This document shows, in pieces, positions 16,256-60,981 of a stretch of 64,000 bases of DNA (position 1 is the stretch's first letter; every line of letters starts with the position of its first letter). The notes beneath the pieces were generated by a model that saw only the letters and a list, made by a program, of their open reading frames with translations, had not been told where the DNA came from and made no database searches. Origin of the DNA: Novakomyces olei (Eukaryota). The stretch is from assembly GCA_016906335.1 (NCBI GenBank), contig JADEYG010000005.1, forward strand, positions 310,001 to 374,000, read 5' to 3'. The translations under genes were made by a program, and so were the position numbers.

Positions 16256-17516
16256 ATGGCTGAAGAGCTAAGAGCAGAGCAGCGCACAGAGCTGAACTCG
16301 CTAGTGCTAGACTATTTAGCAAAAAATGGCTACAGTAAAGCGGAAAAGTCTTTTAAAAAGGAGGCTAAAATCGCGGCGAGTGGCGTCGTTCGCAGGACAT
16401 TAGAACAAGTTTATTTATCAGGTCAAGTGCCGAAAAGCGACCAAACTTCTTCCAGCTCAGATGAATCAGACTCGGACGATTCTTCGGAAAGCTCATCAGA
16501 TGATAGTAAAAGCAGTAGTGATGGATCTCATGCTTCGTTAGAGACGACGGCCTCTGATATTGATTCTGATGATAGTTCGTCCTCGAGCAGCTCGGATGTG
16601 GGATCTAACAACAAAGATCCGGTTTCGACTGCCAGTGATATTGATAATAAGAAGAGCGTCAGTAAACGTGAAACTTCAGGCAGCTCAAGTGACAGCTCAA
16701 GCGATTCTGACAGCTCAAGCGATTCTGACAGCTCAAGCGATTCTGACAGCTCTAGCGATTCTGACAGCTCTAGCGATTCTAGCAGTTCTAGCGATTCTAG
16801 CAGTTCTAGCGATTCTGACAGCTCTAGCGAGTCTGACAGCTCTAGCGATTCTGACAGCTCTAGCGATTCTAGCAGTTCTAGCGATTCTAGCAGCTCTAGT
16901 TCGTCGGAGGATTCTGACAGCTCCGAAAACGATGAAAGCGATAGCGATGCAAGCAGCTCAGAAGAGTCAGAGAGCTCGGGGGATAAAGCTGAAGATAAAG
17001 AAACGTCAAAGTCCAGAACAAATTCGACAGAGAATTTAGATAAATCAAAAGACATCGAGAATAAACCAGCTTCAGCCAGCGTCAAACGGAAATTTGAGCA
17101 GGCCAATAACGAATCTGATAACCTGGATGAGTATGTGAATTTAATTAGTCGTTCAAGATTTTGGGATACTTTTAGCAGTATTGTTTTTTATCTTTCTTTG
17201 GTTTTATATCTTGCAAATGAAATACTAAATTTCTAGTCTAGTAGAAGTGGAAGCATCGAACGAGAATATGAAACGGCTGAAATCACATAATGTACCTTTT
17301 TCTAGGATGGGTGACGTTAACAAAATCGTGTTCCATAAGAACGAGCTCAGGAACAATGAATTCAATTTTGGTGATGATGATTATGGAGCAAAGGCGTTTC
17401 ATGATCTTAAAGTTACACGAGGAAAAGGTTTTACGAAGGAGAAGAACAAAAAGAAACGAGGCAGCTATCACGGAGGCGCGATCTCTCTCGAAAGCCGGAG
17501 CATTAAATTTGATTAG
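16256..17516 (+). CDS. SRP40: Nucleolar Ser-rich protein Srp40/Nopp140
   Basis: LisH-like N-terminus, poly-S/D repeats, intron 17131-17236, SRP40_C motif DLKVTRGKGFTKEKNKKKRGSYHGGAI...SIKFD. Confidence 0.92.
16681..16900 (+). repeat. Coding 18-bp tandem repeats (SDSDSS / SDSSSS) in SRP40
   Basis: AGCGATTCTGACAGCTCW units. Confidence 0.9.
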
Positions 17517-26653: not shown

Positions 26654-27712
26654 AAAAATTGCTGTGAAAAGGCAGGAGATGCTTCCAATCTGCCTCTGCC
26701 AAGTTGATTTGCTGTACGCTTGACTATACTATCCGCGCTGGGTTCCGGCTCTATTTATACGGTACTGTGGGACCCCCACAAACGACAGGGTTTTCTCGGG
26801 GATTGCGTGCATGGAGACAATGTATACGGATTCTACAGGCGAATGGATCTCATACCAGATGTCTGGCGAGCGCGCGGTATAACGAACGAACACGAGCTGG
26901 CTTGAACGAATGACACTTGAATGCTGGAAACCGTACAATTATTAGCCGGTCTATACTATACACAAGCATCTGCACTTATCGTGAGGCACTTTGCCTTTAA
27001 CGCAGCCAATTGGTGAGTAAACCCACCAAGGTTTGAAATGTATCATATACTTTTCCAACGGTTTCTATGGGTAATAGCATTATTGGGTAGGCTTGTGATG
27101 TAATTCGTTATAAATTGCAATACGCTATGCTATATACGACGCACGAGATTTATATTTATTTTAGACTTATATTTAATGAACAGTCATTGCGACTGTTCAT
27201 TTATGATATTTTGTACGATAATACTCTATTACTAAAATTTCGAACATATAATTATTAATACTAGTCTGTCCCGTTTTCCCCATAATAAGCGAGATGCTGC
27301 TCAGATATTATGTGTCAGTATATGGATACACTAGGGAAAAAACCGCAGTATTGCAATATCACAAAGTATGTCAATGTCCAAATAAAAGACCAAATTGATA
27401 TAGTTGCTCTTGATAAAGGCAATCTTGATAATGCTCATTTCTCCACTGACCCAATGCCAAACAATTGCGAACATTATCCTTCTATCTATCAGACACAAAT
27501 TTATAGAGCCAATAGCACAGCTATAGCCTACGAGTGCTCTACGACACGCAGTTTGCCCGTCAATTCTTGCCACAATAGTTTAAACGCCGTATACGAGAGA
27601 ATTTAGAGTGATAGTACACAAGAGCCGGCTCAATGATAAACGCAGAGTGGCTCGGCAGGTAGAAACCCTACCAATATCATCACAAGAACAGACACACATG
27701 GTATTAGCCAGT

Positions 27713-31582: not shown

Positions 31583-34390
31583 TCACTTATTCAAACGCTG
31601 AAAAATATCGTCTAGAGCACAGGGCTTGAAGTTGTCCCTGTCACGGGGATCCTGAGCCCAAATAATATCGCCATGGAGATATAATAGCACTCCTCCTGTG
31701 CCCGCAGCAGACGCAGTAATACGGTACAATGGCTCACCTGTTTCAGCGTGAGCCTTGCGAGTCGGAACGAGTAGCAGATCATGATCAGCGCAAAAAGTTT
31801 CAACAATATCCCGGAACATTAGCTCTGCATTTTCCTCATCGGCAGGAGGCAGACGTGAAAATGAAGAATCTTTGCCAGTGGAAGGCACTTTCTTCTTTGG
31901 CCGTGGAGGTCCGGCAACAGGAGCCTTGAGCTTTGTAGCCGCTTCTGCTCCCAAATCCAGAGATCTGTTCATCATATCAAGGCCCTTACGAAACTCGCCC
32001 TGTACTAGAGGCAAATGCACAATTTCTTCGGGAATAATCGTCTGCCACCATTGGTACCATTGGCCAACTTGCTCATAATTGGGTTCGTTTGTAAGCCAGA
32101 GGAAAAGCACATTAAGCCACTGAGGGAAAAATTCGGTCTCCAAGAGCTGAGCAAACACAGAAGGCCGAAAAAGCGTCCGCCATTCCAACACTGAATCAAA
32201 AACTTGCAGTTCCTGATCCGCTGGGTTTATGACAAAATCAGTCCGCAGACAATTTGCTAATTTCGGGAGAATATTACGGATTAGTAACTGCTCAAATTCT
32301 CCCTTTCCAAGCACTTGAGCCCAGACTTTGAGGTCAGATGGATGGCAATTTGCAGATGAAGCTTTCAGCGAAATGATTGGCCATGAACGTAAAGTGCTGC
32401 CCAGTTTGCGCCGAATAAGGTCCATTAGTTCTGTGGTTGTTTGTGCATTTAAGCGACTAACCCCCAGCCAGGGAAAGATCCACGTGTCAGGGTGACCGGG
32501 ATTGTCATCGTCATTATCATTATCAACATTATTCTTAATTTTAACATCGTCATCACTTTTAAGATCGGTTTTATTTATTTTCTTCTTTTTTGCTGGAGTC
32601 CAGGAGGCCAACGCAAGACGCAATTTAGGAACAATAGACTGCTCCAGTAGATTTTGGTATACAAAGCCTGGAATTATATCGCTCCAAGCATCGAGCAGAG
32701 TAAGAACTGACCAGCTGTCTTGCACAGGATCCCAATCGTTATTAATTGCCGCTCGGACTTTAGGTAGCCAGCACCAGTAAATAAAGGATTCGTAATGAGT
32801 AGCGTACCGTCGAGAAGATGAGGAGCCACCATTGGTACCTTCTAATGCAGCTGATTGAGGGTCAAGTTCGATTAAAAGCAGCTGGCGATTTCTGTATATC
32901 GCTTCACGGTACAGAAAAGGATCATTTAATGGATCCCAATCGGCCAGTGCTTTTTGCATCTGTGGAGCCAATGCGCCTACAGCCACTTCATCCAGCTCAA
33001 GCTGTTCCTTTTCTCCTCCAAAAGAAATGTATAGAGCTTCCATTGTCTGTGAAATAGCAGCAACATCGTCGTTAACTTTAGATTTAGACTTTGTACTTGC
33101 TTTATCGTCGTCAACGTCAATCTGCCGCACGTTTGCTACGGCATTTTTGCTGCTTGTCTCCGCATGTTTCATAATCAATGCTTTCACCTGCCCGATAACA
33201 GCTTCAAGGCGCTGAATCTTTTGCGAGTACTCGTCCAGTTCGATTGTCAAGTTCTCCGATTCCATATCCACGTACTTTTTTCTAGCCTGTAACGTCTCCC
33301 ATTCCTGCATGTACCGTTCAACATCAGCTCGAGCCATTTGTCCCAGCTTTACAATCTCCGGGTCCTGTCCCAGAGTCAGATCGGATTGTATGGCTATCCG
33401 ACCATCTGCTGCCTCGATCTGCTGCGCTTGAGGCCCCGTCATATCAATCAGACTTGAAAGCGTTTTGGGCAGGTGAATTTCTCCCTTAGTTGCCTCTTCA
33501 ATATCGTGACTCGTCTTGTACCGAGTCTTGGGCAAATTACTGCGCCTTTGAGCAAACACTTTTTTGTTGTGTCTATTTGCTCTCCCTCTCGATTCTTGGT
33601 CTTCTTCATCCGAAGAAATCTGGCCCTGCCGCCTGGCCTCCTCACGTGCCTGCTGTGTCTTTTCCTTAATAGTTCCCAACCCCGCTCGCTCTGGCCGCAG
33701 TTTTGTTTCTATCGGCTTCACTATACCTTGTCCAGCCGAACCCAGCCCTTGACCGGAAACATAACCCAGTTTTTCCATCATTTTGGCCCCCAATCCAGAC
33801 GTGTTGAACGCCATCTTTGTGAAGGGCTTGGCAGGTTGGATTCTACCGGCAAAGGGTTTGTTAGGGTTTGTTTCATTCAGTAAAGGCCCGGGCTCGTTTC
33901 CAACTCTACTATTTAGATCCGTTCCTGTGGGGCGGTTTGCCTTCAAGCGCTGCTGTACATTGACAGGCTGATCCTTTCCGAAGTTCAGAGGCTGGCGACT
34001 GTCCGCGCCCGGCTCTTTGACCGCTTGATGTGATTGATCTGCTGGAACTGTGGCACTTTGATTAGTGCCATCAACCGAGCTTTTACCGGTATTATTTGTC
34101 TGCATCTCTACCGCGTCTTCCACCGGCCTCGGAAATTTCTCTTCATTGACTTTATTTACGAAATTAACGCCCTTGTACCTCAGCACCTTATGATTCAAAC
34201 GGCCATCTTGCTCATCGTCCTCTGCAAAGACTCCCAGCATTGCATCTGTTTTGGCGTCTGTTACGCGCCGTCTTTTGCGTGAAATCGAATTAAACTCATC
34301 AGCAGAACCTCCTTCATCACTCGAAGGATAAGACGGTTCATCAGACTCCTCGTCTGAACTGTCTGGCGCGAAGCCCAGCCCGCCAGGCAT
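31583..34390 (-). CDS. NTR1: G-patch spliceosome disassembly factor TFIP11/Ntr1 (Spp382)
   Basis: G-patch GAKMMEKLGYVSGQGLGSAGQGIVKPI, followed by a GCFC-type region (INPADQEL, FFPQWLNVLFLWL). First ATG at 34390; the ORF track starts at an upstream TTG. Confidence 0.9.
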   Translation of the reverse strand: MPGGLGFAPDSSDEESDEPSYPSSDEGGSADEFNSISRKRRRVTDAKTDAMLGVFAEDDEQDGRLNHKVLRYKGVNFVNKVNEEKFPRPVEDAVEMQTNNTGKSSVDGTNQSATVPADQSHQAVKEPGADSRQPLNFGKDQPVNVQQRLKANRPTGTDLNSRVGNEPGPLLNETNPNKPFAGRIQPAKPFTKMAFNTSGLGAKMMEKLGYVSGQGLGSAGQGIVKPIETKLRPERAGLGTIKEKTQQAREEARRQGQISSDEEDQESRGRANRHNKKVFAQRRSNLPKTRYKTSHDIEEATKGEIHLPKTLSSLIDMTGPQAQQIEAADGRIAIQSDLTLGQDPEIVKLGQMARADVERYMQEWETLQARKKYVDMESENLTIELDEYSQKIQRLEAVIGQVKALIMKHAETSSKNAVANVRQIDVDDDKASTKSKSKVNDDVAAISQTMEALYISFGGEKEQLELDEVAVGALAPQMQKALADWDPLNDPFLYREAIYRNRQLLLIELDPQSAALEGTNGGSSSSRRYATHYESFIYWCWLPKVRAAINNDWDPVQDSWSVLTLLDAWSDIIPGFVYQNLLEQSIVPKLRLALASWTPAKKKKINKTDLKSDDDVKIKNNVDNDNDDDNPGHPDTWIFPWLGVSRLNAQTTTELMDLIRRKLGSTLRSWPIISLKASSANCHPSDLKVWAQVLGKGEFEQLLIRNILPKLANCLRTDFVINPADQELQVFDSVLEWRTLFRPSVFAQLLETEFFPQWLNVLFLWLTNEPNYEQVGQWYQWWQTIIPEEIVHLPLVQGEFRKGLDMMNRSLDLGAEAATKLKAPVAGPPRPKKKVPSTGKDSSFSRLPPADEENAELMFRDIVETFCADHDLLLVPTRKAHAETGEPLYRITASAAGTGGVLLYLHGDIIWAQDPRDRDNFKPCALDDIFQRLNK

Positions 34391-34421
34391 CGCGTAAAAG
34401 TCCAGTGCCAACCGTCTTGTA

Positions 34422-34583
34422 ATGAATTATATGAATTATATGAATTATATGAATTATATGAATTATATGAATTATATGAATTATATGAATTATATGAATT
34501 ATATGAATTATATGAATTATATGAATTATATGAATTATATGAATTATATGAATTATATGAATTATATGAATTATATGAATTAT
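34422..34583. repeat. Perfect 9-bp minisatellite (ATGAATTAT)x18
   Basis: 18 exact copies (MNY x18 in the ORF track), ending about 30 bp upstream of the NTR1 ATG. Confidence 0.97.
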
Positions 34584-52793: not shown

Positions 52794-55700
52794 TTAAATA
52801 AAGTAGTTGTGGGACGACATGCCAGCGAGATCGTCGAGCTGTTCGCGAGTAAAAGCCTTTTGGTCGAGGTGCCAGGTATCGCTGCGCAGCTTTCTAAACT
52901 TTTCCAGCTCCTGCCTCACTGTCCTCCTGATCGGGTGAGGGTCGTGAGAGCAGCTGGACAAGAGGGAAACGACGTGGGGCATCCAGGCTGGAGGAGCGTC
53001 GTAAGGACAGGAAGCCAAGACGGCAGCGAGTCCGAGCACTGACCCGTGTCTCCGTACAACGTCGGCCGCTGCCGAGTCAGCGTCAGACAAAGGCACATTC
53101 GCATTTGCTGGACAGCTGTCCATCTTGCCAGAGCGCTCAGTCGCTTCCAGTTCGTGGGCAAAAACGGCAATGTACTGCCTTATCAAACTGTCCCGGTCGA
53201 GCACAGAGCAGTGCAGGAGTGCCGTCATTCCGTCAGAGGCTGCGCTTCGTACTTCTGCCTGAGGATCAAAGAGCAGTTTTGTCATTGTGGCAAACAAGCG
53301 GTCACGCAGAGCTCCACGCAGCCAGTAAGCGTGGCCCCAGGCGAGCCTTATAATAACGGGGACCATATGGATCTTGTGGTGCCAAAACTGCCCTCCGTCA
53401 GCGATGCCCTGGACGACTCCGACAAACAGCTCCAGAGTCCCATAGCTGTGCTGCGAATTAGCGAGCCGGAACAACTGACCGGCTGCCTGCAGCCTCAGCT
53501 CTGGATCATCGTTCACGTCCAGCATAAAGAGCAGTTCAGTGAGGAGCCATTTGGCAGTGACGCTGTACACGACAGAGCCATCAAAGCCAGACGTTGCCTG
53601 CTGCAGAAAGGAGAGGAGCGTCTTGCACGTAGACGTGTAGGTTATATACAGCTCTGCCGAGTGCTCTTTTGTCTCGCGGCCGTTGGCAGTTTGTCTGCCA
53701 AAGGCGCAGAGGGTTTGTACGTACACAGCTGGCACCGTGTACCGTTCACTATACACGTTAGACACATTAGACGCGTTAGCGTCTGTAGACACGCTAGACA
53801 CATTAGACGCGTTAGCGTCTGTAGACACGTTAGAAACGTTAGACACGTTAGACACGTTAGACACGTTAGACACGTTAGACACGTTAGACACGTTAGACAC
53901 ATTAGCGTCTGTAGATTCAGTCATAGACACGTTAGACGCGTCTAACGTGTCAGACGCGTCAGACGCGTCTCTGGCAGAGGCAATAAAATCACCGGCCCGA
54001 GTGTACGGCGGCAGCGGCAGCGGCCCGAGCATCTCGGCGACAGTGTACCCAATCTCTGACCGCACTTTCTTGTAAGGGTTGTCTGCGTGTTTGACGAGAT
54101 GGTCGAGTGCTCTTTTGTCCAGAGAGCAGTGCCAATTGCAGGCGGAGAGCAGTTTACGGTGCAGAGCCAATCTCGCCGACTCGGCAAACGTTCTATCGGA
54201 CTCTGGATCCAACTGAGTGTGGGCAATTACGTCGTACAGCGGCCAGTGCCTTGCACAGTCTGTGCCCGTAAACACGTGGCGCACAAACGTCTTCCAGTAC
54301 GCAAAATTGTCTATATTCAGAGCAGATTGGAGGGCCGATTGTACTATAGGCACAATCAGCAAATGCATCTCGTCCCTCTCCCGCTGAGACGAATGGCTAA
54401 AGGCGGCAAATATACTACACAATACTTCTACGGCCGCTCGATGATGGAACTTTTCTGTGCTCGCGACACACAGCCGCTGCAGTTCTCGAGCTGCGTCGCT
54501 GAGAGAGACAGCTGCTCTGTTTACCTCTGACAACTGCCACACTCCCTTGAGGAAATTGATGACCTGGAACCTGACCCGTACTGCAGAGCCGCCTGTGTCG
54601 GCCAGCCGAGGCTCCTCTGACAGATAGCCCACCAGCCGCTCAAACCAGGAGCGGTCAAAGACGGCCGCCAGTACATGCAGATTCTCTGCCAGCTGGTCCT
54701 GGCGTAGATGGTTCTTTTCTTTGTCCTCTTTGTCCTCTTTGTCCTTTTCTTTATTGCCCTCTTTGTCCTTTTCTTTGTCCTTTTCTTTGTCCTCTTTGTC
54801 CTCTTCCTCTATGTCCATATCTTTATTGTCCTCTTCCTCTTTGTCCTCTTTGTCCTCTTTGTCCATATCTCTGCCCCCTCTGTCAGAAACTACCAACTGC
54901 TCGGGAAACACGAGCCAGCCGGCGGCATAAGAGTCCAGAAAGAACGGCCGGTCACGGCGCTGGAGCACGTCACGCACCTCTGCCTTTTGCAGGTGTGGAA
55001 AAACGTCAGTCGTAGTCCGCCTGTGCTGGTGGCTTTCCAGCACAGTTCCGCAAGCGACTCTCCCAATCTCCGGCACTTTAGTACAGACCCAGAGAAGGGG
55101 CAGAATCGTGGCCAGCATGGCAATCGAGAGCGACCGTGTGGCGGAATGGCTGTCCACCGTATACTCTGCCAGGGTTTTCAGGAGTGCATTGTCGGGACAG
55201 GTTTCCGCCAGGCTGATTGTCGTTACGCCAAAGGAGAGCATTATCACTACTATCCGCCAATGCTTTTGCCCTACACTGCTCGTGATGGAGGATAGAAAGC
55301 GGGCAGCCCCAACTTTGTTGTCCGCATCAGCCTCGGCAAACAGCCGAGCCAGATCGGCAACTCGGCCAGGCAAAGAAGAAGGAGCAGGCAGCTCTGGCAG
55401 GTAGCGGCCAGTGTAGCTCGTCCACCTGACCCGGAAGACGGGCCGAGTTGTCAGCTTTGCAAACAGCTGGTAGGCAAACTGCTTCAGGCTTGAGCCATCG
55501 TGGTTCAGGCCGAGCATTATCCTGTCAAACAGCCTCGATCTCAGCTTCCAGCTCCGTCCTGCTGCCTTTACAAGGATTGTGCTGGCATCAAACAGGTGCA
55601 GTGTCCCAGCAAGAATATGCTTCTCGCTACTGGCAGTGCCCAATAAAAGGCTCTCGCAGATCAGCGTCAGCGACGTCCGCACCCGTTTCACACAATTAAC

Positions 55701-58700
55701 AAGTCCAACTTGGGCTTCAGACCGGACAGCCGAGTAGTGGGAGGCATTGCACGCTAAAAGAGCCCTCAAAACCCGCTCATCCCTGTCCGACATGTCCCAA
55801 AGATGGGCAGATTTTTCGAGACGGTCCGTAAAGTACGTAAAGGCTCTCAGTGCCATCGTCGACCGTGGGTAGTTGCGTCTTATTCCGGGGACACGGAAAT
55901 GCTCAACGTCATTCTCATACAAATCACCGTCCTCCAGGGCATTAGTAGCGCTTGTTGCATTGGGTGTGAGCAGGAAGCAGTACAGACACGTCACCATTGC
56001 CTCCATACACTGAACCTCGTCGGAACAGTGGTCTTGCAGGAGGCTAAAGGTGGAGAGAAGGCAGTCCCCCACTCTGGCTCTGCAGGCTGCCAGTCGTGGA
56101 TCTGTCCCGTCTTCCCCATAACCCGTCCGCAATTGAAAGCTGTACATTTCAAGGGACAAGTAACGCTCGTCTATACCGCAGACACCCGTGCCTTGTAGAG
56201 ATTCTTGTAGAGAGTCTTTTGGAGATTCCGATTCTCGAGTGGCAGAGTCGTCTGGCTGACTGGTCGAGAGCAGTTTGGATACGCCATTGATACAGTTGGC
56301 CAAACGATTGAGAAGCAGTATCAGATCGGCACTCGACGTTTTGTCAAACTTGTACTCTGCCCGTACTACCGCCTCTCTAATTGCTTCAATTCGCTCTACG
56401 GAAACATTAGCTACTGTGGTGAAAATGTCGATTGCAAACTCAATCTCCTCATTGCAGGGGACGTGCCAGGCGATACACAAGCCGGCAAGATCACACGAGG
56501 ATCCCCAAGCACTGAGGAGCGCTGCTGCGTCCAGTGCTTCCATATCCTGTACCGTCCTTCTGTCACACGTGTAGTACTCTACGAGTCCGCACAGTGTACT
56601 GCAGACGAGATCGTTTGCCAGTCCTCCAGCATAGCCTTTCAGGCGCAGAAACATCAGGTCAAAGAGGCGTAAAAGCTTCTTCTTGTACGGCAGAATACTC
56701 GCTCCAGCGGCAGGCATTAGAGCCTTGAGGATCCTCAGCTGAGCTACCAAGTTCCGGTCTCGCGGGAGCACGTCTTTAGCCGTACTACGCCGATCACAGC
56801 CAGCATGAGACTCTCTGATTTCTTCTTCTATACTATCAATGCAAAAGGGCACTATTGCCGGCACGAATAGGTCCTTGTGGATCATACAGCAACTAGCCAC
56901 GGTTTCCACAAAGTTAACCGCCGACCAAGGCGGAGAGTCACGAATAAACTGTGCACAAGTCTCGATGGCAGACTCACACAGCTCTCCAGAGATGGACGAA
57001 AACATGTAGAGAAAAGTGCCTCGCACAAAGATGGTAGTCATACTGTTGGAATCCTCCGTTGAATTCTCGAAAAAACTAAACAGCCTGCCCAAACAAGCCG
57101 TAATAAAATCGTGAAAAGTAGCCGTTGAGGATTGTGTAATCTGATCAAGCGTGTAGCCGCCGTCTCCAAGGTCAGTATCCTGTTCTGCTGACCCGTATTC
57201 CGGACTCGATTGTGGCCCTGGTGCATCTACGGGAACAGTATAGTCGTCGTCAGAAGCGCATTGGTCCAGTGCTTGGATTTGCTCCTGTACCCATTCCGCT
57301 GCAATGTGCGAGGGCAGTGGTCCCGAGACGTCTTTGAACGGGACTAGCTGGAAGACGGTTTGAATAAACTCCAGAGAGGAATGAGTCTTGCCCACGTCGT
57401 TTGCATCAATGCCAGGCAAACACAGCTCTAGCAAGGCTGCAACGTGAGGCCTAAACTGCTTATGGCTGACAATAACCCGTACAAGGCTCTTTAAAAGCTC
57501 CATTGCAGCTGCTGTACGTCTTGTTTCCAGTAGCCCTTGCATCGCTGGATATATCCGTTTCAGAGCACCGGGGACCACCAAGTCTGGTTCAAGGTAGGCC
57601 GAAAAGGTGAGGCATTCAGCTGCATTTGCATAGACAATGGGAGACGAATCATAAATGCTTATAAAGGCAGAGTCTCGAAGGACACGGACCAACTGGATTT
57701 TAGTCGCTTTTGACAACTTTCTTGCCTCGGGTACTTGCAGCTCTCCATTCGCCTCCAGGTTCCATCTCATGGTTAAATGGCCGGCCAGACTGGAGAGAAA
57801 TTTGGCCAGAGTCCTCGTTGCCCGAGTTGAGTTTGACGGGTGAAGGTTTGTCTTCACCCCTATCAGAAAACGTTGCACGTATGAACATATATTCTCGAAA
57901 TCATCAGCAGCAGGATCTGGACCCAGGGAATACACGACAAACCGCGCATAACGATCTTCCACCCGAACCTCACTCTCTGTAATATCTGCACCGGCTCCCA
58001 AAATATGGCCCGCACCAATATCACTATCCGGCCTATACTGTCCCGTTACTGGCACCTCAAAGGCTCTCACAGCGGCAGACGCAATTTTTCTGCCTTGCTG
58101 CGGAGTAAAAACACCAAATGCCCCAAACGCATCAGCACCAGATCCATCCGCTAACGCGTCACGGGCAATCCGTGAAAATAGATCAATCATTGACAGGTCA
58201 ACCGAGATGGAATTTGTAATGTACGACCAGACCAAGAAAAGTGCGGGCAAATGCTCTTGCAGTGGCTGGCTATCCGGTGAAGGGCAAGTTGGAAAAAACA
58301 GGCATAGTAGTGATAGGCATTTAAAGGCGCCATTACAAGATCCATAGGGGTTAGCCAGATCAAAAAGTTCCAAGCATTCACTCAGTATTTGCTGCCGGTC
58401 ACAGGGATTAAAGTAGGGCCGTACTACTTTGACCAGCGCCACCAGCACCTCCTTCCAATCACTCCATCCAGCGGCAAAAGCAGGCGCAAACGGGGTCGTC
58501 AGCATACCCTTGAGCCTTTGAAAAACAGGCCGCCAATCTACGTCGAGATCATTCGGGGCAATAAAGAGTCCGTTGCTATTTGAAACAAAAAAGTTTAGCA
58601 GGTAGAGAAACGACCTGGCATCGCGTGAGTCTGGCGTGCATTGTACGACCTCATACAAGTTCAGAATCAAAGCCTTGCGAGTATGAAGCGCGAGAGGAAC

Positions 58701-58919
58701 TTTGAGCTTTACCAAAGTTTTTATATTCTTTACAGTCAGTCGGGCTCCAATCCAGTCACGCGCCTCTAGCAGAGTCCGCAGATCGCGTAGTAGCTCCGCT
58801 GTCTGGTCTCTGCCGACAGAATCATCCTCTAAAGCGTAAGGTAAGTGTTTTCGATAGTCAAAAAGCCGTGTTCGCGTCGCATAGCCCAATGCATTTGCTG
58901 GACGATCCAGCAGAGGCAT
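52794..58919 (-). CDS. BLM10: Proteasome activator Blm10/PA200
   Basis: About 2040-aa HEAT-like intronless ORF with LCLPGIDANDVGKT, RRHGSVLGLAA..PY..PAW, FRKLRSDTW and a C-terminal HbYX-type NYFI. First ATG at 58919. Confidence 0.9.
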   Translation of the reverse strand: MPLLDRPANALGYATRTRLFDYRKHLPYALEDDSVGRDQTAELLRDLRTLLEARDWIGARLTVKNIKTLVKLKVPLALHTRKALILNLYEVVQCTPDSRDARSFLYLLNFFVSNSNGLFIAPNDLDVDWRPVFQRLKGMLTTPFAPAFAAGWSDWKEVLVALVKVVRPYFNPCDRQQILSECLELFDLANPYGSCNGAFKCLSLLCLFFPTCPSPDSQPLQEHLPALFLVWSYITNSISVDLSMIDLFSRIARDALADGSGADAFGAFGVFTPQQGRKIASAAVRAFEVPVTGQYRPDSDIGAGHILGAGADITESEVRVEDRYARFVVYSLGPDPAADDFENICSYVQRFLIGVKTNLHPSNSTRATRTLAKFLSSLAGHLTMRWNLEANGELQVPEARKLSKATKIQLVRVLRDSAFISIYDSSPIVYANAAECLTFSAYLEPDLVVPGALKRIYPAMQGLLETRRTAAAMELLKSLVRVIVSHKQFRPHVAALLELCLPGIDANDVGKTHSSLEFIQTVFQLVPFKDVSGPLPSHIAAEWVQEQIQALDQCASDDDYTVPVDAPGPQSSPEYGSAEQDTDLGDGGYTLDQITQSSTATFHDFITACLGRLFSFFENSTEDSNSMTTIFVRGTFLYMFSSISGELCESAIETCAQFIRDSPPWSAVNFVETVASCCMIHKDLFVPAIVPFCIDSIEEEIRESHAGCDRRSTAKDVLPRDRNLVAQLRILKALMPAAGASILPYKKKLLRLFDLMFLRLKGYAGGLANDLVCSTLCGLVEYYTCDRRTVQDMEALDAAALLSAWGSSCDLAGLCIAWHVPCNEEIEFAIDIFTTVANVSVERIEAIREAVVRAEYKFDKTSSADLILLLNRLANCINGVSKLLSTSQPDDSATRESESPKDSLQESLQGTGVCGIDERYLSLEMYSFQLRTGYGEDGTDPRLAACRARVGDCLLSTFSLLQDHCSDEVQCMEAMVTCLYCFLLTPNATSATNALEDGDLYENDVEHFRVPGIRRNYPRSTMALRAFTYFTDRLEKSAHLWDMSDRDERVLRALLACNASHYSAVRSEAQVGLVNCVKRVRTSLTLICESLLLGTASSEKHILAGTLHLFDASTILVKAAGRSWKLRSRLFDRIMLGLNHDGSSLKQFAYQLFAKLTTRPVFRVRWTSYTGRYLPELPAPSSLPGRVADLARLFAEADADNKVGAARFLSSITSSVGQKHWRIVVIMLSFGVTTISLAETCPDNALLKTLAEYTVDSHSATRSLSIAMLATILPLLWVCTKVPEIGRVACGTVLESHQHRRTTTDVFPHLQKAEVRDVLQRRDRPFFLDSYAAGWLVFPEQLVVSDRGGRDMDKEDKEDKEEEDNKDMDIEEEDKEDKEKDKEKDKEGNKEKDKEDKEDKEKNHLRQDQLAENLHVLAAVFDRSWFERLVGYLSEEPRLADTGGSAVRVRFQVINFLKGVWQLSEVNRAAVSLSDAARELQRLCVASTEKFHHRAAVEVLCSIFAAFSHSSQRERDEMHLLIVPIVQSALQSALNIDNFAYWKTFVRHVFTGTDCARHWPLYDVIAHTQLDPESDRTFAESARLALHRKLLSACNWHCSLDKRALDHLVKHADNPYKKVRSEIGYTVAEMLGPLPLPPYTRAGDFIASARDASDASDTLDASNVSMTESTDANVSNVSNVSNVSNVSNVSNVSNVSNVSTDANASNVSSVSTDANASNVSNVYSERYTVPAVYVQTLCAFGRQTANGRETKEHSAELYITYTSTCKTLLSFLQQATSGFDGSVVYSVTAKWLLTELLFMLDVNDDPELRLQAAGQLFRLANSQHSYGTLELFVGVVQGIADGGQFWHHKIHMVPVIIRLAWGHAYWLRGALRDRLFATMTKLLFDPQAEVRSAASDGMTALLHCSVLDRDSLIRQYIAVFAHELEATERSGKMDSCPANANVPLSDADSAAADVVRRHGSVLGLAAVLASCPYDAPPAWMPHVVSLLSSCSHDPHPIRRTVRQELEKFRKLRSDTWHLDQKAFTREQLDDLAGMSSHNYFI
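53754..53968 (-). repeat. Coding 9-bp repeat (TCTAACGTG)n = (SNV)n inside BLM10
   Basis: Plus strand (GTTAGACAC)n plus duplicated STDANASNV blocks. Confidence 0.92.
54713..54863 (-). repeat. Coding K/E/D charged repeat (DKE)n inside BLM10
   Basis: TTTGTCCTC-type 9-bp units encoding DKEDKEE... Confidence 0.88.
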
Positions 58920-59415
58920 ATACTCGGATTCTGAGTGTCGTAAGGGACGTGCTTGTGCGCATAAGTATGCGCAAAGTCCGTTCGAGGGAGAGTACGTAGG
59001 CTGGCAGGACAGACTGGAAGGCAAATTTGTATACTATAGGTTTATAATAATAAAATAATTATAGTAATAAAATAATTAATTAAAATAATTAAAATAATTA
59101 AAATAATTAAAATAATTAAAATAATTAAAATAATAAATAATTATAATAATAAAATAATTATAGTGATAAAATAAAATAAAAGAATTATTACAATCATCAC
59201 CGATAAAATGTATAATTATAATATTAGTAATTTGTTTTACTCGTACCTCTAATGACGTACGCACGCCCGATCCAACCTTATCACACGTGTTATTTCTAAC
59301 GCGCCAATTTATATAGAGTCTGCAACACAATAGTATAGGGAAAATAAAACGTTATTCTGAGCATAAAAGACCACCATTATTGCCAGCTCAACACGTTGCA
59401 ATTGTGACAAGGAGA

Positions 59416-60981
59416 ATGAGACTATTGACCTTTGCAGGAGCCATTGCCGCGTGTGCGCTCTCCGTGGCCGCGAAGTAAGTATTCACAGCTCGACTACAGA
59501 ACAAGAGCTCATGGAATTAGACTGCTCGAGCTTGATGCCTCCAACTTTGACAGTATCGTTGGATCAGGCAAACCGAGCCTTATCATGTTTTCTGCTCCTT
59601 GGTGTGGGCATGTAAGTCGTGGTTGTTGGTGAAGGACTGCTCGTCTAATGCTTGCAGTGCAAAAGATTGACTCCAACGTTTGAAGAACTTGCAGAATCTT
59701 ATGCCCATACGGACAAAATTACTATTGCTAAAGTCAACGCGGACGAGCACAAGGCTCTGGGTCAGCGCTACGATATCCAAGGATTTCCCACTCTCAAGGT
59801 AAACGAAGCCCGGCTTATTGTGTGCTATACTGATGGGTGCATAGCTTTTCAATGGCAATACCAAGGACCACGAGGACTATAATTCTGGTCGCGATTTAGA
59901 GTCATTGCAGACTTTTATTCGGACGAAAACAGGACTGGCTCCACACAAGCAACTGGCTAAGCTGCTGAATCCCGAACAGACTGTTACACTGACGGCCCAG
60001 AACTTTGATAGTATCGCGCTAGATCCCTCCAAGGATGTACTAGTCGAGTTCTTTGCTCCATGATAAGTTTTGATTATTCCCGCGCTTTACTGACATATAT
60101 ACGTGTGGGCACTGCAAAAATCTTGCACCCATCTATGAAAGCGTTGCACAGGACTATTCTCGCGACAAAAACGTGAGTTTGAATTATGCGCTATCGACAA
60201 TTTAACATTTAGATCGTCATTGCCAAACTTGACAGTACTGAATTCCCCGATATTGCTCAAAGATACGGTATTCAGAGCTATCCAACCATCAAATGTAATT
60301 TAATTGTTCAACAGATTGAGCTGCCAAACTAATTCTTAGTCTTTCCGCATGGCAGTGCCAGTAAAACTGCGGTCGATTACACCGCTGGTCGCTCACAACA
60401 GGAATTTATCGATTGGATTAATGAGAAGGCGGGTAGTTTCCGTAAACTAGGAGGCGCTTTAAATGAGCTTGCTGCCAGAATTCCGGACTTTGACGAGGTT
60501 GTCCTGGGGATAAAGAGCGCAGCCGATGTTGACAAGGCGGTGGCTACTTTGCAAAAGCTCGCTGGCGCTGGAAGCGATGCGCAAGAACGTCCGCGATGGG
60601 AGAAATACTACTTTAAGGTTCTTGATAAGATTCGTTCTTCTCCTCTATATGTCTCTCAAGAATTGCGACGCTTGGAGGGCCTCTTAGTCTTGCCAACCGT
60701 TAGCAAAGAACAGTAAGTGGTGTTCTGCTTTGATTGTCATAGTCTCTTCTAAATTTGTTTTGTTTTATATTTTGTTTCATCATTTGAATTATGGATTAGA
60801 AAAGATCACGTTTTTATGTCGTCTCATTTCGTCTCGTTTTATTAATTTAATTTATTTTTTCAATTTTTTTTTATCTTTTGGGGTTTCTTTCTTACGAGGC
60901 AGGCTCGATGGAATTCAAGCGCGCCACAACATTTTGTCGGCGTTCAAGGGTCTACAAAATAATGCGCGTGATGAGCTTTAA
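59416..60981 (+). CDS. ERp38/TigA-type protein disulfide isomerase (two thioredoxin domains, helical C-domain, RDEL)
   Basis: Introns 59475-59520, 59612-59657, 59799-59844, 60063-60102 (AT-AC), 60173-60212, 60295-60339, 60713-60902. Signal peptide, two WCGHCK sites, C-terminal NILSAF..RDEL. Confidence 0.93.
60063..60102 (+). other. Non-canonical AT-AC spliceosomal intron (U2-type signals)
   Basis: TG|ATAAGT...TACTGAC...ATAC|G TGT GGG CAC TGC. Removal restores FFAPWCGHCK. Confidence 0.88.

Follow-up and report, generated by a model that had tools for sequence, protein, structure and literature searches.

A 40-nt AT-AC interruption in the second active site of a PDI-family gene is probably a major-spliceosome intron

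The PDI-family gene at 59416-60981 (+) raises a question of splicing: the Trp codon of its second WCGHC active site is interrupted by 40 nt that start with AT and finish in AC. Is this piece a genuine intron, which machinery could remove it, and where did it come from? All positions refer to the window, the whole 64-kb stretch of DNA that was analysed. The gene model was obtained by enumerating the acceptors for each donor from the ATG at 59416 to the RDEL-TAA at 60979-60981, which gave eight exons with a single open frame and a predicted product of 370 aa. This product has the a-a'-D architecture of the PDI family, with a signal-peptide-like start, two WCGHC thioredoxin domains (a and a'), an ERp29-type C-terminal (D) domain, and RDEL as the ER-retention signal. 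This layout, from the signal peptide through the pair of CGHC thioredoxin domains and the ERp29 C-domain to the ER-retention tail, is shared by the fungal two-domain PDIs with an ERp29-type D domain, TigA of Aspergillus and ERp38 of Neurospora.

The exons of the model can be assigned to the domains as follows. Exon 1 (59416-59474) is followed by exon 2 (59521-59611) and exon 3 (59658-59798), in which the Pfam Thioredoxin match ends at profile position 32 and begins again at position 33, respectively; the nearest solved relatives of exon 3 among the PDB sequences are TXNDC5, PDIA4, PDI, and PDIA6. Exon 4 (59845-60062), whose final 27 residues correspond to Thioredoxin profile positions 2-28, terminates with TTC TTT GCT CCA TG, in which the TG supplies two of the three bases of the second WCGHC's Trp codon. 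Exon 5 (60103-60172) opens with the G that finishes this codon, continues with CGHCKNLAPIYESVAQDYSRDKN, and covers profile positions 30-49 (E 1.1e-05). Exon 6 (60213-60294) is also matched by Pfam Thioredoxin, exon 7 (60340-60712) carries the ERp29 C-domain (Pfam, E 4.5e-08), and exon 8 (60903-60981) ends with RDEL-TAA. Queried on its own, exon 7 gave no match at E ≤ 0.001 to longer proteins and none to PDB sequences. The two active sites are split at different positions: intron 2 (59612-59657, GT-AG, phase 0) interrupts the first WCGHC after the His codon, whereas in the a' domain intron 4 splits the Trp codon. Besides intron 4 the gene has six introns, all GT-AG, five of them 40-46 nt long and one 190 nt, with the donors GTAAGT (three times), GTAAAC, GTGAGT, and GTAATT and with CTRAY-like branch motifs such as CTAAT, ACTGAT, TTAACA, and ACTAAT located 7-11 nt from their 3' ends. 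Together with these six introns, approximately 200 open codons downstream of the interruption, the ERp29 domain, and RDEL are intact.

Intron 4 (60063-60102, phase 2) reads ATAAGTTTTGATTATTCCCGCGCTTTACTGACATATATAC, with AT at 60063-60064 and AC at 60101-60102, and is followed from 60103 by G TGT GGG CAC TGC AAA. These letters and coordinates are exactly those given in a first-pass annotation of the window, which had claimed that only removal of precisely this piece rebuilds FFAPWCGHCK, that no GT-AG pair can do so, that no AG follows the branch point, and that retention would place a stop at once. All possible GT-AG, GC-AG, and AT-AC combinations were listed for donors within 59900-60063 and acceptors within 60066-60172, and the observation was confirmed. 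The frame stays open as far as RDEL in 40 of the resulting excisions, of which a single one, that of 60063-60102, yields FFAPWCGHCK; the GT-AG and GC-AG alternatives, which are 94-241 nt long, all remove CGHC and have poor donors, for example GTACTA, GTCGAG, and GTTCTT. The sole AG in the 40 nt occupies intron positions 4-5, and the next one is found at 60140-60141. Retention of the intron leads to a stop directly after FFAP, at residue 169. The enumeration supports the reading of 60063-60102 as an intron-sized interruption that would need exact removal.

Coding continuity across the putative junction is precise. The Thioredoxin profile reaches position 28 at the end of exon 4 and restarts at position 30 with the first full codon of exon 5, indicating that exactly one residue is absent, namely the split Trp. 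After the predicted splicing, the a' domain and the protein's own a domain are 41% identical over 109 aa (E 7e-30), and their alignment runs through the junction ungapped. The splice-like signals by themselves are not above chance in the window: the pattern ATAAGT-N14-40-CTRAY-N4-15-YAC occurs 2 times in the 64 kb against 1.05 expected, and at least 2 occurrences were found in 30 of 100 shuffles. The second match (26933-26979, -) is taken as a chance occurrence because it lies in the MnSOD promoter, upstream of the TATA box and the ATG. It is the coding continuity that exceeds chance; our case is built on it, and it is strong. Scans for introns by open flanks and codon bias, intended for splice statistics, were dropped, since some were too strict (8 and 3 candidates) and others gave too much noise, with 96 candidate rows for GT-AG and 42 for AT-AC. 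Many false intron candidates came from tandem 18-nt coding repeats (CAGCTCAAGCGATTCTGA-like) at 16662-16773 (+), within a LisH-domain open reading frame.

AT-AC termini occur in introns of both spliceosomes, and the internal signals of intron 4 were compared with each type. The putative branch site TACTGAC (60088-60094) is a fungal branch motif of the ordinary kind, with the presumed branch A at 60093, 9 nt before the last intron base; this distance and the intron length of 40 nt are in line with those of the neighbouring introns. The U12 branch motif is TCCTTAAC, approximately 10-15 nt from the 3' end; the sequence found there in intron 4 is GCTTTACTGAC, which matches the U2-type CTRAY/TACTGAC instead. 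At the 5' splice site (60063-60068), ATAAGT differs from the U2-type consensus only in having A at +1 and is identical to the /ATAAGT consensus reported for U2-type AT-AC introns (PMC5029451, PMC1557818). The donor ATAAGTTT shares just ATA with the U12 consensus /ATATCCTT, as the latter is given in PMC5029451. The 3' splice site (60100-60102) is TAC, in which YAC replaces YAG. Taken together, the AT-AC termini, the /ATAAGT donor, and the branch motif place intron 4 among the U2-type AT-AC introns by sequence and outside the U12 type, in agreement with the first-pass annotation.

As to the origin of intron 4, the first-pass annotation had suggested a conversion from GT-AG to AT-AC. We scanned metagenomic contigs for AG or AC immediately before the pattern G-TGY-GGN-CAY-TGY-AAR-x-L-A-P with TAAGT 30-60 nt upstream, and obtained 21 matches in 20 loci (L001-L020). 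The acceptor was AG in 21/21 and AC in 0/21. An exon end of the form AP-TG|GT was located 47-1523 nt upstream in 17 of the matches and lay nowhere within the contig DNA in the other 4/21. A phase-2 GT-AG intron in the Trp codon of WCGHC can therefore be inferred in 17/21, with the donors assigned by pattern and not from transcripts, and with near-duplicates that reduce the loci to approximately 14 distinct sequences. In 7/21 (L002, L005, L007, L008, L017, L019, and L020), TAAGT itself belongs to the donor right after AP-TG, and the introns are short ones of fungal type, 47-61 nt in length. The loci are paralogues or distant PDI-family members rather than orthologs, with 35-55% identity over short pieces.

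These metagenomic introns share with intron 4 the exon end AP-TG, the split of the Trp codon in phase 2, and the resumption at G-TGY-GGN-CAY-TGY, but they differ from it in that all of them end with AG and every identified donor is GT. As far as the patterns allow, the matches show that introns splitting the WCGHC Trp codon in phase 2 are widespread among the PDI genes of eukaryotes, GT-AG being their normal form. The proposed conversion thereby gains support: since this position holds GT-AG introns in other PDI-family genes, intron 4 most likely arose from a GT-AG intron through two compensating substitutions. One contig (L012) contained two of the matches (159-231 and 1500-1566, -), with a Trp-codon GT-AG intron in each of the two thioredoxin domains (253 and 296 nt). 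This double occurrence suggests that the intron position is either older than the domain duplication or has been gained repeatedly.

Several other accounts of the interruption have to be weighed against removal by the major spliceosome. One is that the 40 nt are taken out by another machine, which could be the minor (U12) spliceosome, Ire1 together with tRNA ligase as in HAC1 and XBP1, or a ribosome that skips them. AT-AC termini are commonest among U12 introns, and a faint resemblance to the U12 branch motif can be seen in CTTTAC, which lies 12 nt from the 3' end, but the donor is of the wrong type, as described above. The host also argues against it. Among the protein matches of neighbouring genes, those of Blm10/PSME4 reach only 31-33% identity, and the named ones are from Ascomycota; those of MnSOD reach at most 66%, the top one being from Saitoella, a member of Taphrinomycotina, at 60%, and the rest from further Dikarya and, in a few cases, Mucoromycota. 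The host is a fungus with no near relative among the proteins searched and, tentatively, probably an early-branching ascomycete. The best matches thus come from Dikarya, and Larue and Roy's group report no convincing minor introns from Ascomycota and Basidiomycota (PMC10639083). Because the lineage is not firmly placed, the lack of a minor spliceosome in this host is a presumption. An Rfam search at gathering thresholds over the whole 64-kb window (1-64000) gave 0 matches, including no minor snRNA, although 64 kb says little on this point. Removal by Ire1 is imaginable since a PDI gene is of the ER-stress type. In introns of the HAC1/XBP1 type, twin hairpins hold the two borders in their loops, each within a CNG|C motif; here the borders are ATG|ATA and TAC|GTG, in which the CNG|C loop motif is absent, and the predicted fold of 60035-60130 (z -0.98) forms no twin hairpins. 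For a ribosomal bypass, no Trp codon in frame with CGHC is possible. We regard removal by any of these machines as very improbable. In the same fold, the intron segment CCCGCGC (60080-60086) pairs with GUGUGGG of exon 5 (60103-60109), looping out the branch and the 3' splice site, the fold as a whole scoring no better than shuffled sequences. Two further arrangements were also rejected: a nested intron, from sequence and fold, and an antisense GT-AG intron, the reverse complement of intron 4 being GT-AT.

It is also conceivable that the gene was recently disabled, in which case the change of G1 to A would have killed splicing, the C at the last base would be a coincidence, and the product would be a 169-aa secreted fragment of the a domain and linker, or nothing after nonsense-mediated decay. 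The stop directly after FFAP in a retained intron fits this account, and the statement in PMC1557818 that G1>A can be rescued implies that G1>A alone blocks U2-type splicing. However, the second change is the very base at the very position reported there to bring about this rescue, everything downstream is intact, from the exons and their three introns to the ERp29 domain and RDEL, and the a' domain keeps the motifs of the family, so that we consider a fresh disablement improbable. If instead the true termini were GT and AG and the sequence or assembly were wrong, two substitution errors would be required, 39 nt apart and exactly at both terminal bases. Sampled words of the stretch are present at 1.00 and 0.99 in sequencing runs of two studies, which is a weak argument because the words are only a sample and the runs are perhaps not independent, and both of these DNA runs may be the assembly's own source; in two further sequencing runs the words are next to absent. 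The region is otherwise without frame errors, and the unbroken open reading frames of 2079 and 1244 aa nearby make two errors at precisely the terminal bases very unlikely; an error of this kind is the explanation to which we give almost no credence. The first-pass annotation had further imagined a regulatory switch, in which weak AT-AC splicing is modulated, for instance by ER stress, and sets the level of the full-length enzyme. Retention would indeed produce a premature stop, but the region of the intron (60035-60130) has no significant structure. The type II introns found in nature are not known to depart from ordinary constitutive splicing. In PMC1557818, splicing of engineered substrates is said to proceed 'less efficiently' with the A-C pair than with G-G; the natural cases in sodium-channel genes and TAF2 are described, in the part of that paper drawn on here, only as conserved in orthologous genes. 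Such a throttle is pure speculation and improbable.

Our preferred reading is that 60063-60102 is a genuine intron of the major (U2-dependent) spliceosome, of the 'type II' AT-AC kind and derived from a GT-AG intron, and we consider this probable. The letters of the gene show the sequence itself, the unique restoration of the frame, and the fit of the signals; from these we infer that the piece is excised, by which spliceosome, through which branch point, and how efficiently. In the proposed mechanism, the ancestral terminal bases G and G would have changed to A and C (G1>A and last G>C). U1 and U6 would recognise the otherwise perfect TAAGT at +2 to +6, and U2 would pair with TACTGAC, with A60093 serving as the branch nucleotide. 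The non-Watson-Crick contact that the first and last intron nucleotides form during the second catalytic step would involve A and C rather than G and G. The joining of TG to G would then rebuild the Trp codon of WCGHC in the a' domain. Splicing is probably constitutive and possibly less efficient than with G and G, and any unspliced RNA would carry an immediate stop codon. There is, beyond this, an outside chance that the lineage tolerates or favours A and C termini in its major spliceosome, with the PDI intron being one of a set, or that the intron is a conserved and deliberately weak one that limits the full-length ER oxidoreductase. Either case would offer a system provided by nature, in a fungus lacking the minor spliceosome, in which to study how the first and last nucleotides meet during the second catalytic step.

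The basis of this mechanism is already in print. The substitution of paired A-C termini for G-G in U2-type splicing, which the first-pass annotation had cited as established, is described by Sheth et al. 2006 (PMC1557818), who state that in yeast and human a G>C change of the last base rescues G1>A, though less efficiently. Its further statement that natural cases are rare stood as to rarity, with the qualification that the kind has already been described, also for fungi at survey level. According to PMC1557818, 24 of 608,562 U2-type introns in five species are U2-type AT-AC introns ('AT-AC II': human 15, mouse 6, fly 3, worm 0, and Arabidopsis 0). The same paper mentions fungal xylanase genes as hypothesised AT-AC II cases, and our literature search for fungal xylanase AT-AC introns found nothing relevant beyond it. 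Fungal surveys count AT-AC junctions at low frequency (PMC7072748, PMC6176087), and cases like the present one may be among the fungal AT-AC introns listed with PMC7072748.

Intron 4 can be compared with four kinds of AT-AC introns. It resembles the U2-type introns of human SCN4A/SCN5A and TAF2 (PMC1557818) in its AT-AC termini, /ATAAGT donor, and ordinary branch site. Those introns, however, are from animals and are backed, as presented there, by experimental proof or conservation in orthologs, whereas the present one is a 40-nt intron of fungal style predicted from the sequence. With the yeast and human introns engineered to carry both G1>A and last G>C (PMC1557818, PMC5029451) it shares the terminal pair and the rationale, an interaction of the first and last nucleotides in the second step; the mutants are artificial and less efficient, whereas here the pair occurs naturally in an otherwise intact gene. 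The nested AT-AC intron of S. cerevisiae RPL30 (Gould et al. 2016, PMC5029451) likewise represents AT-AC splicing in a fungus that lacks the minor spliceosome, but its donor does not resemble ATAAGT, and it is reported there as a side product of 1-2%. With a consensus donor, and as the sole route to an intact active site and a functional protein, intron 4 would not be a rare side product of that sort. U12-type AT-AC introns have only the terminal dinucleotides in common with it: their donor and branch motifs are absent here, and the likely host group lacks the machinery.

If confirmed by RNA, intron 4 would be a clean natural AT-AC intron of the major spliceosome in a fungus, with the consensus ATAAGT donor. 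It would illustrate how a GT-AG intron at an old and widely shared position is converted by two compensating terminal substitutions. The gene would also be a trap for annotation, as a gene finder restricted to GT-AG and GC-AG would truncate or split it at the second active site. No new question is opened by this case, its kind, consensus, and mechanistic basis having been published before.

The surroundings of the gene show several features of their own. The PDI start codon is separated from the Blm10/PSME4 open reading frame (52794-59033, -) by a divergent spacer of approximately 380 bp. At 59040-59170, this spacer contains an AT-rich tandem repeat with approximately 7 copies of AAAATAATT and related units around them. 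The intron load differs sharply between the two neighbours: the 2079-aa frame of Blm10/PSME4 has 0 introns, whereas the adjoining PDI gene has 7 in 1.57 kb. Elsewhere in the window, at 31583-34426 (-), an unbroken 947-aa frame encodes a G-patch and GCFC protein, presumably a spliceosome-disassembly factor of the TFIP11/Ntr1 kind.
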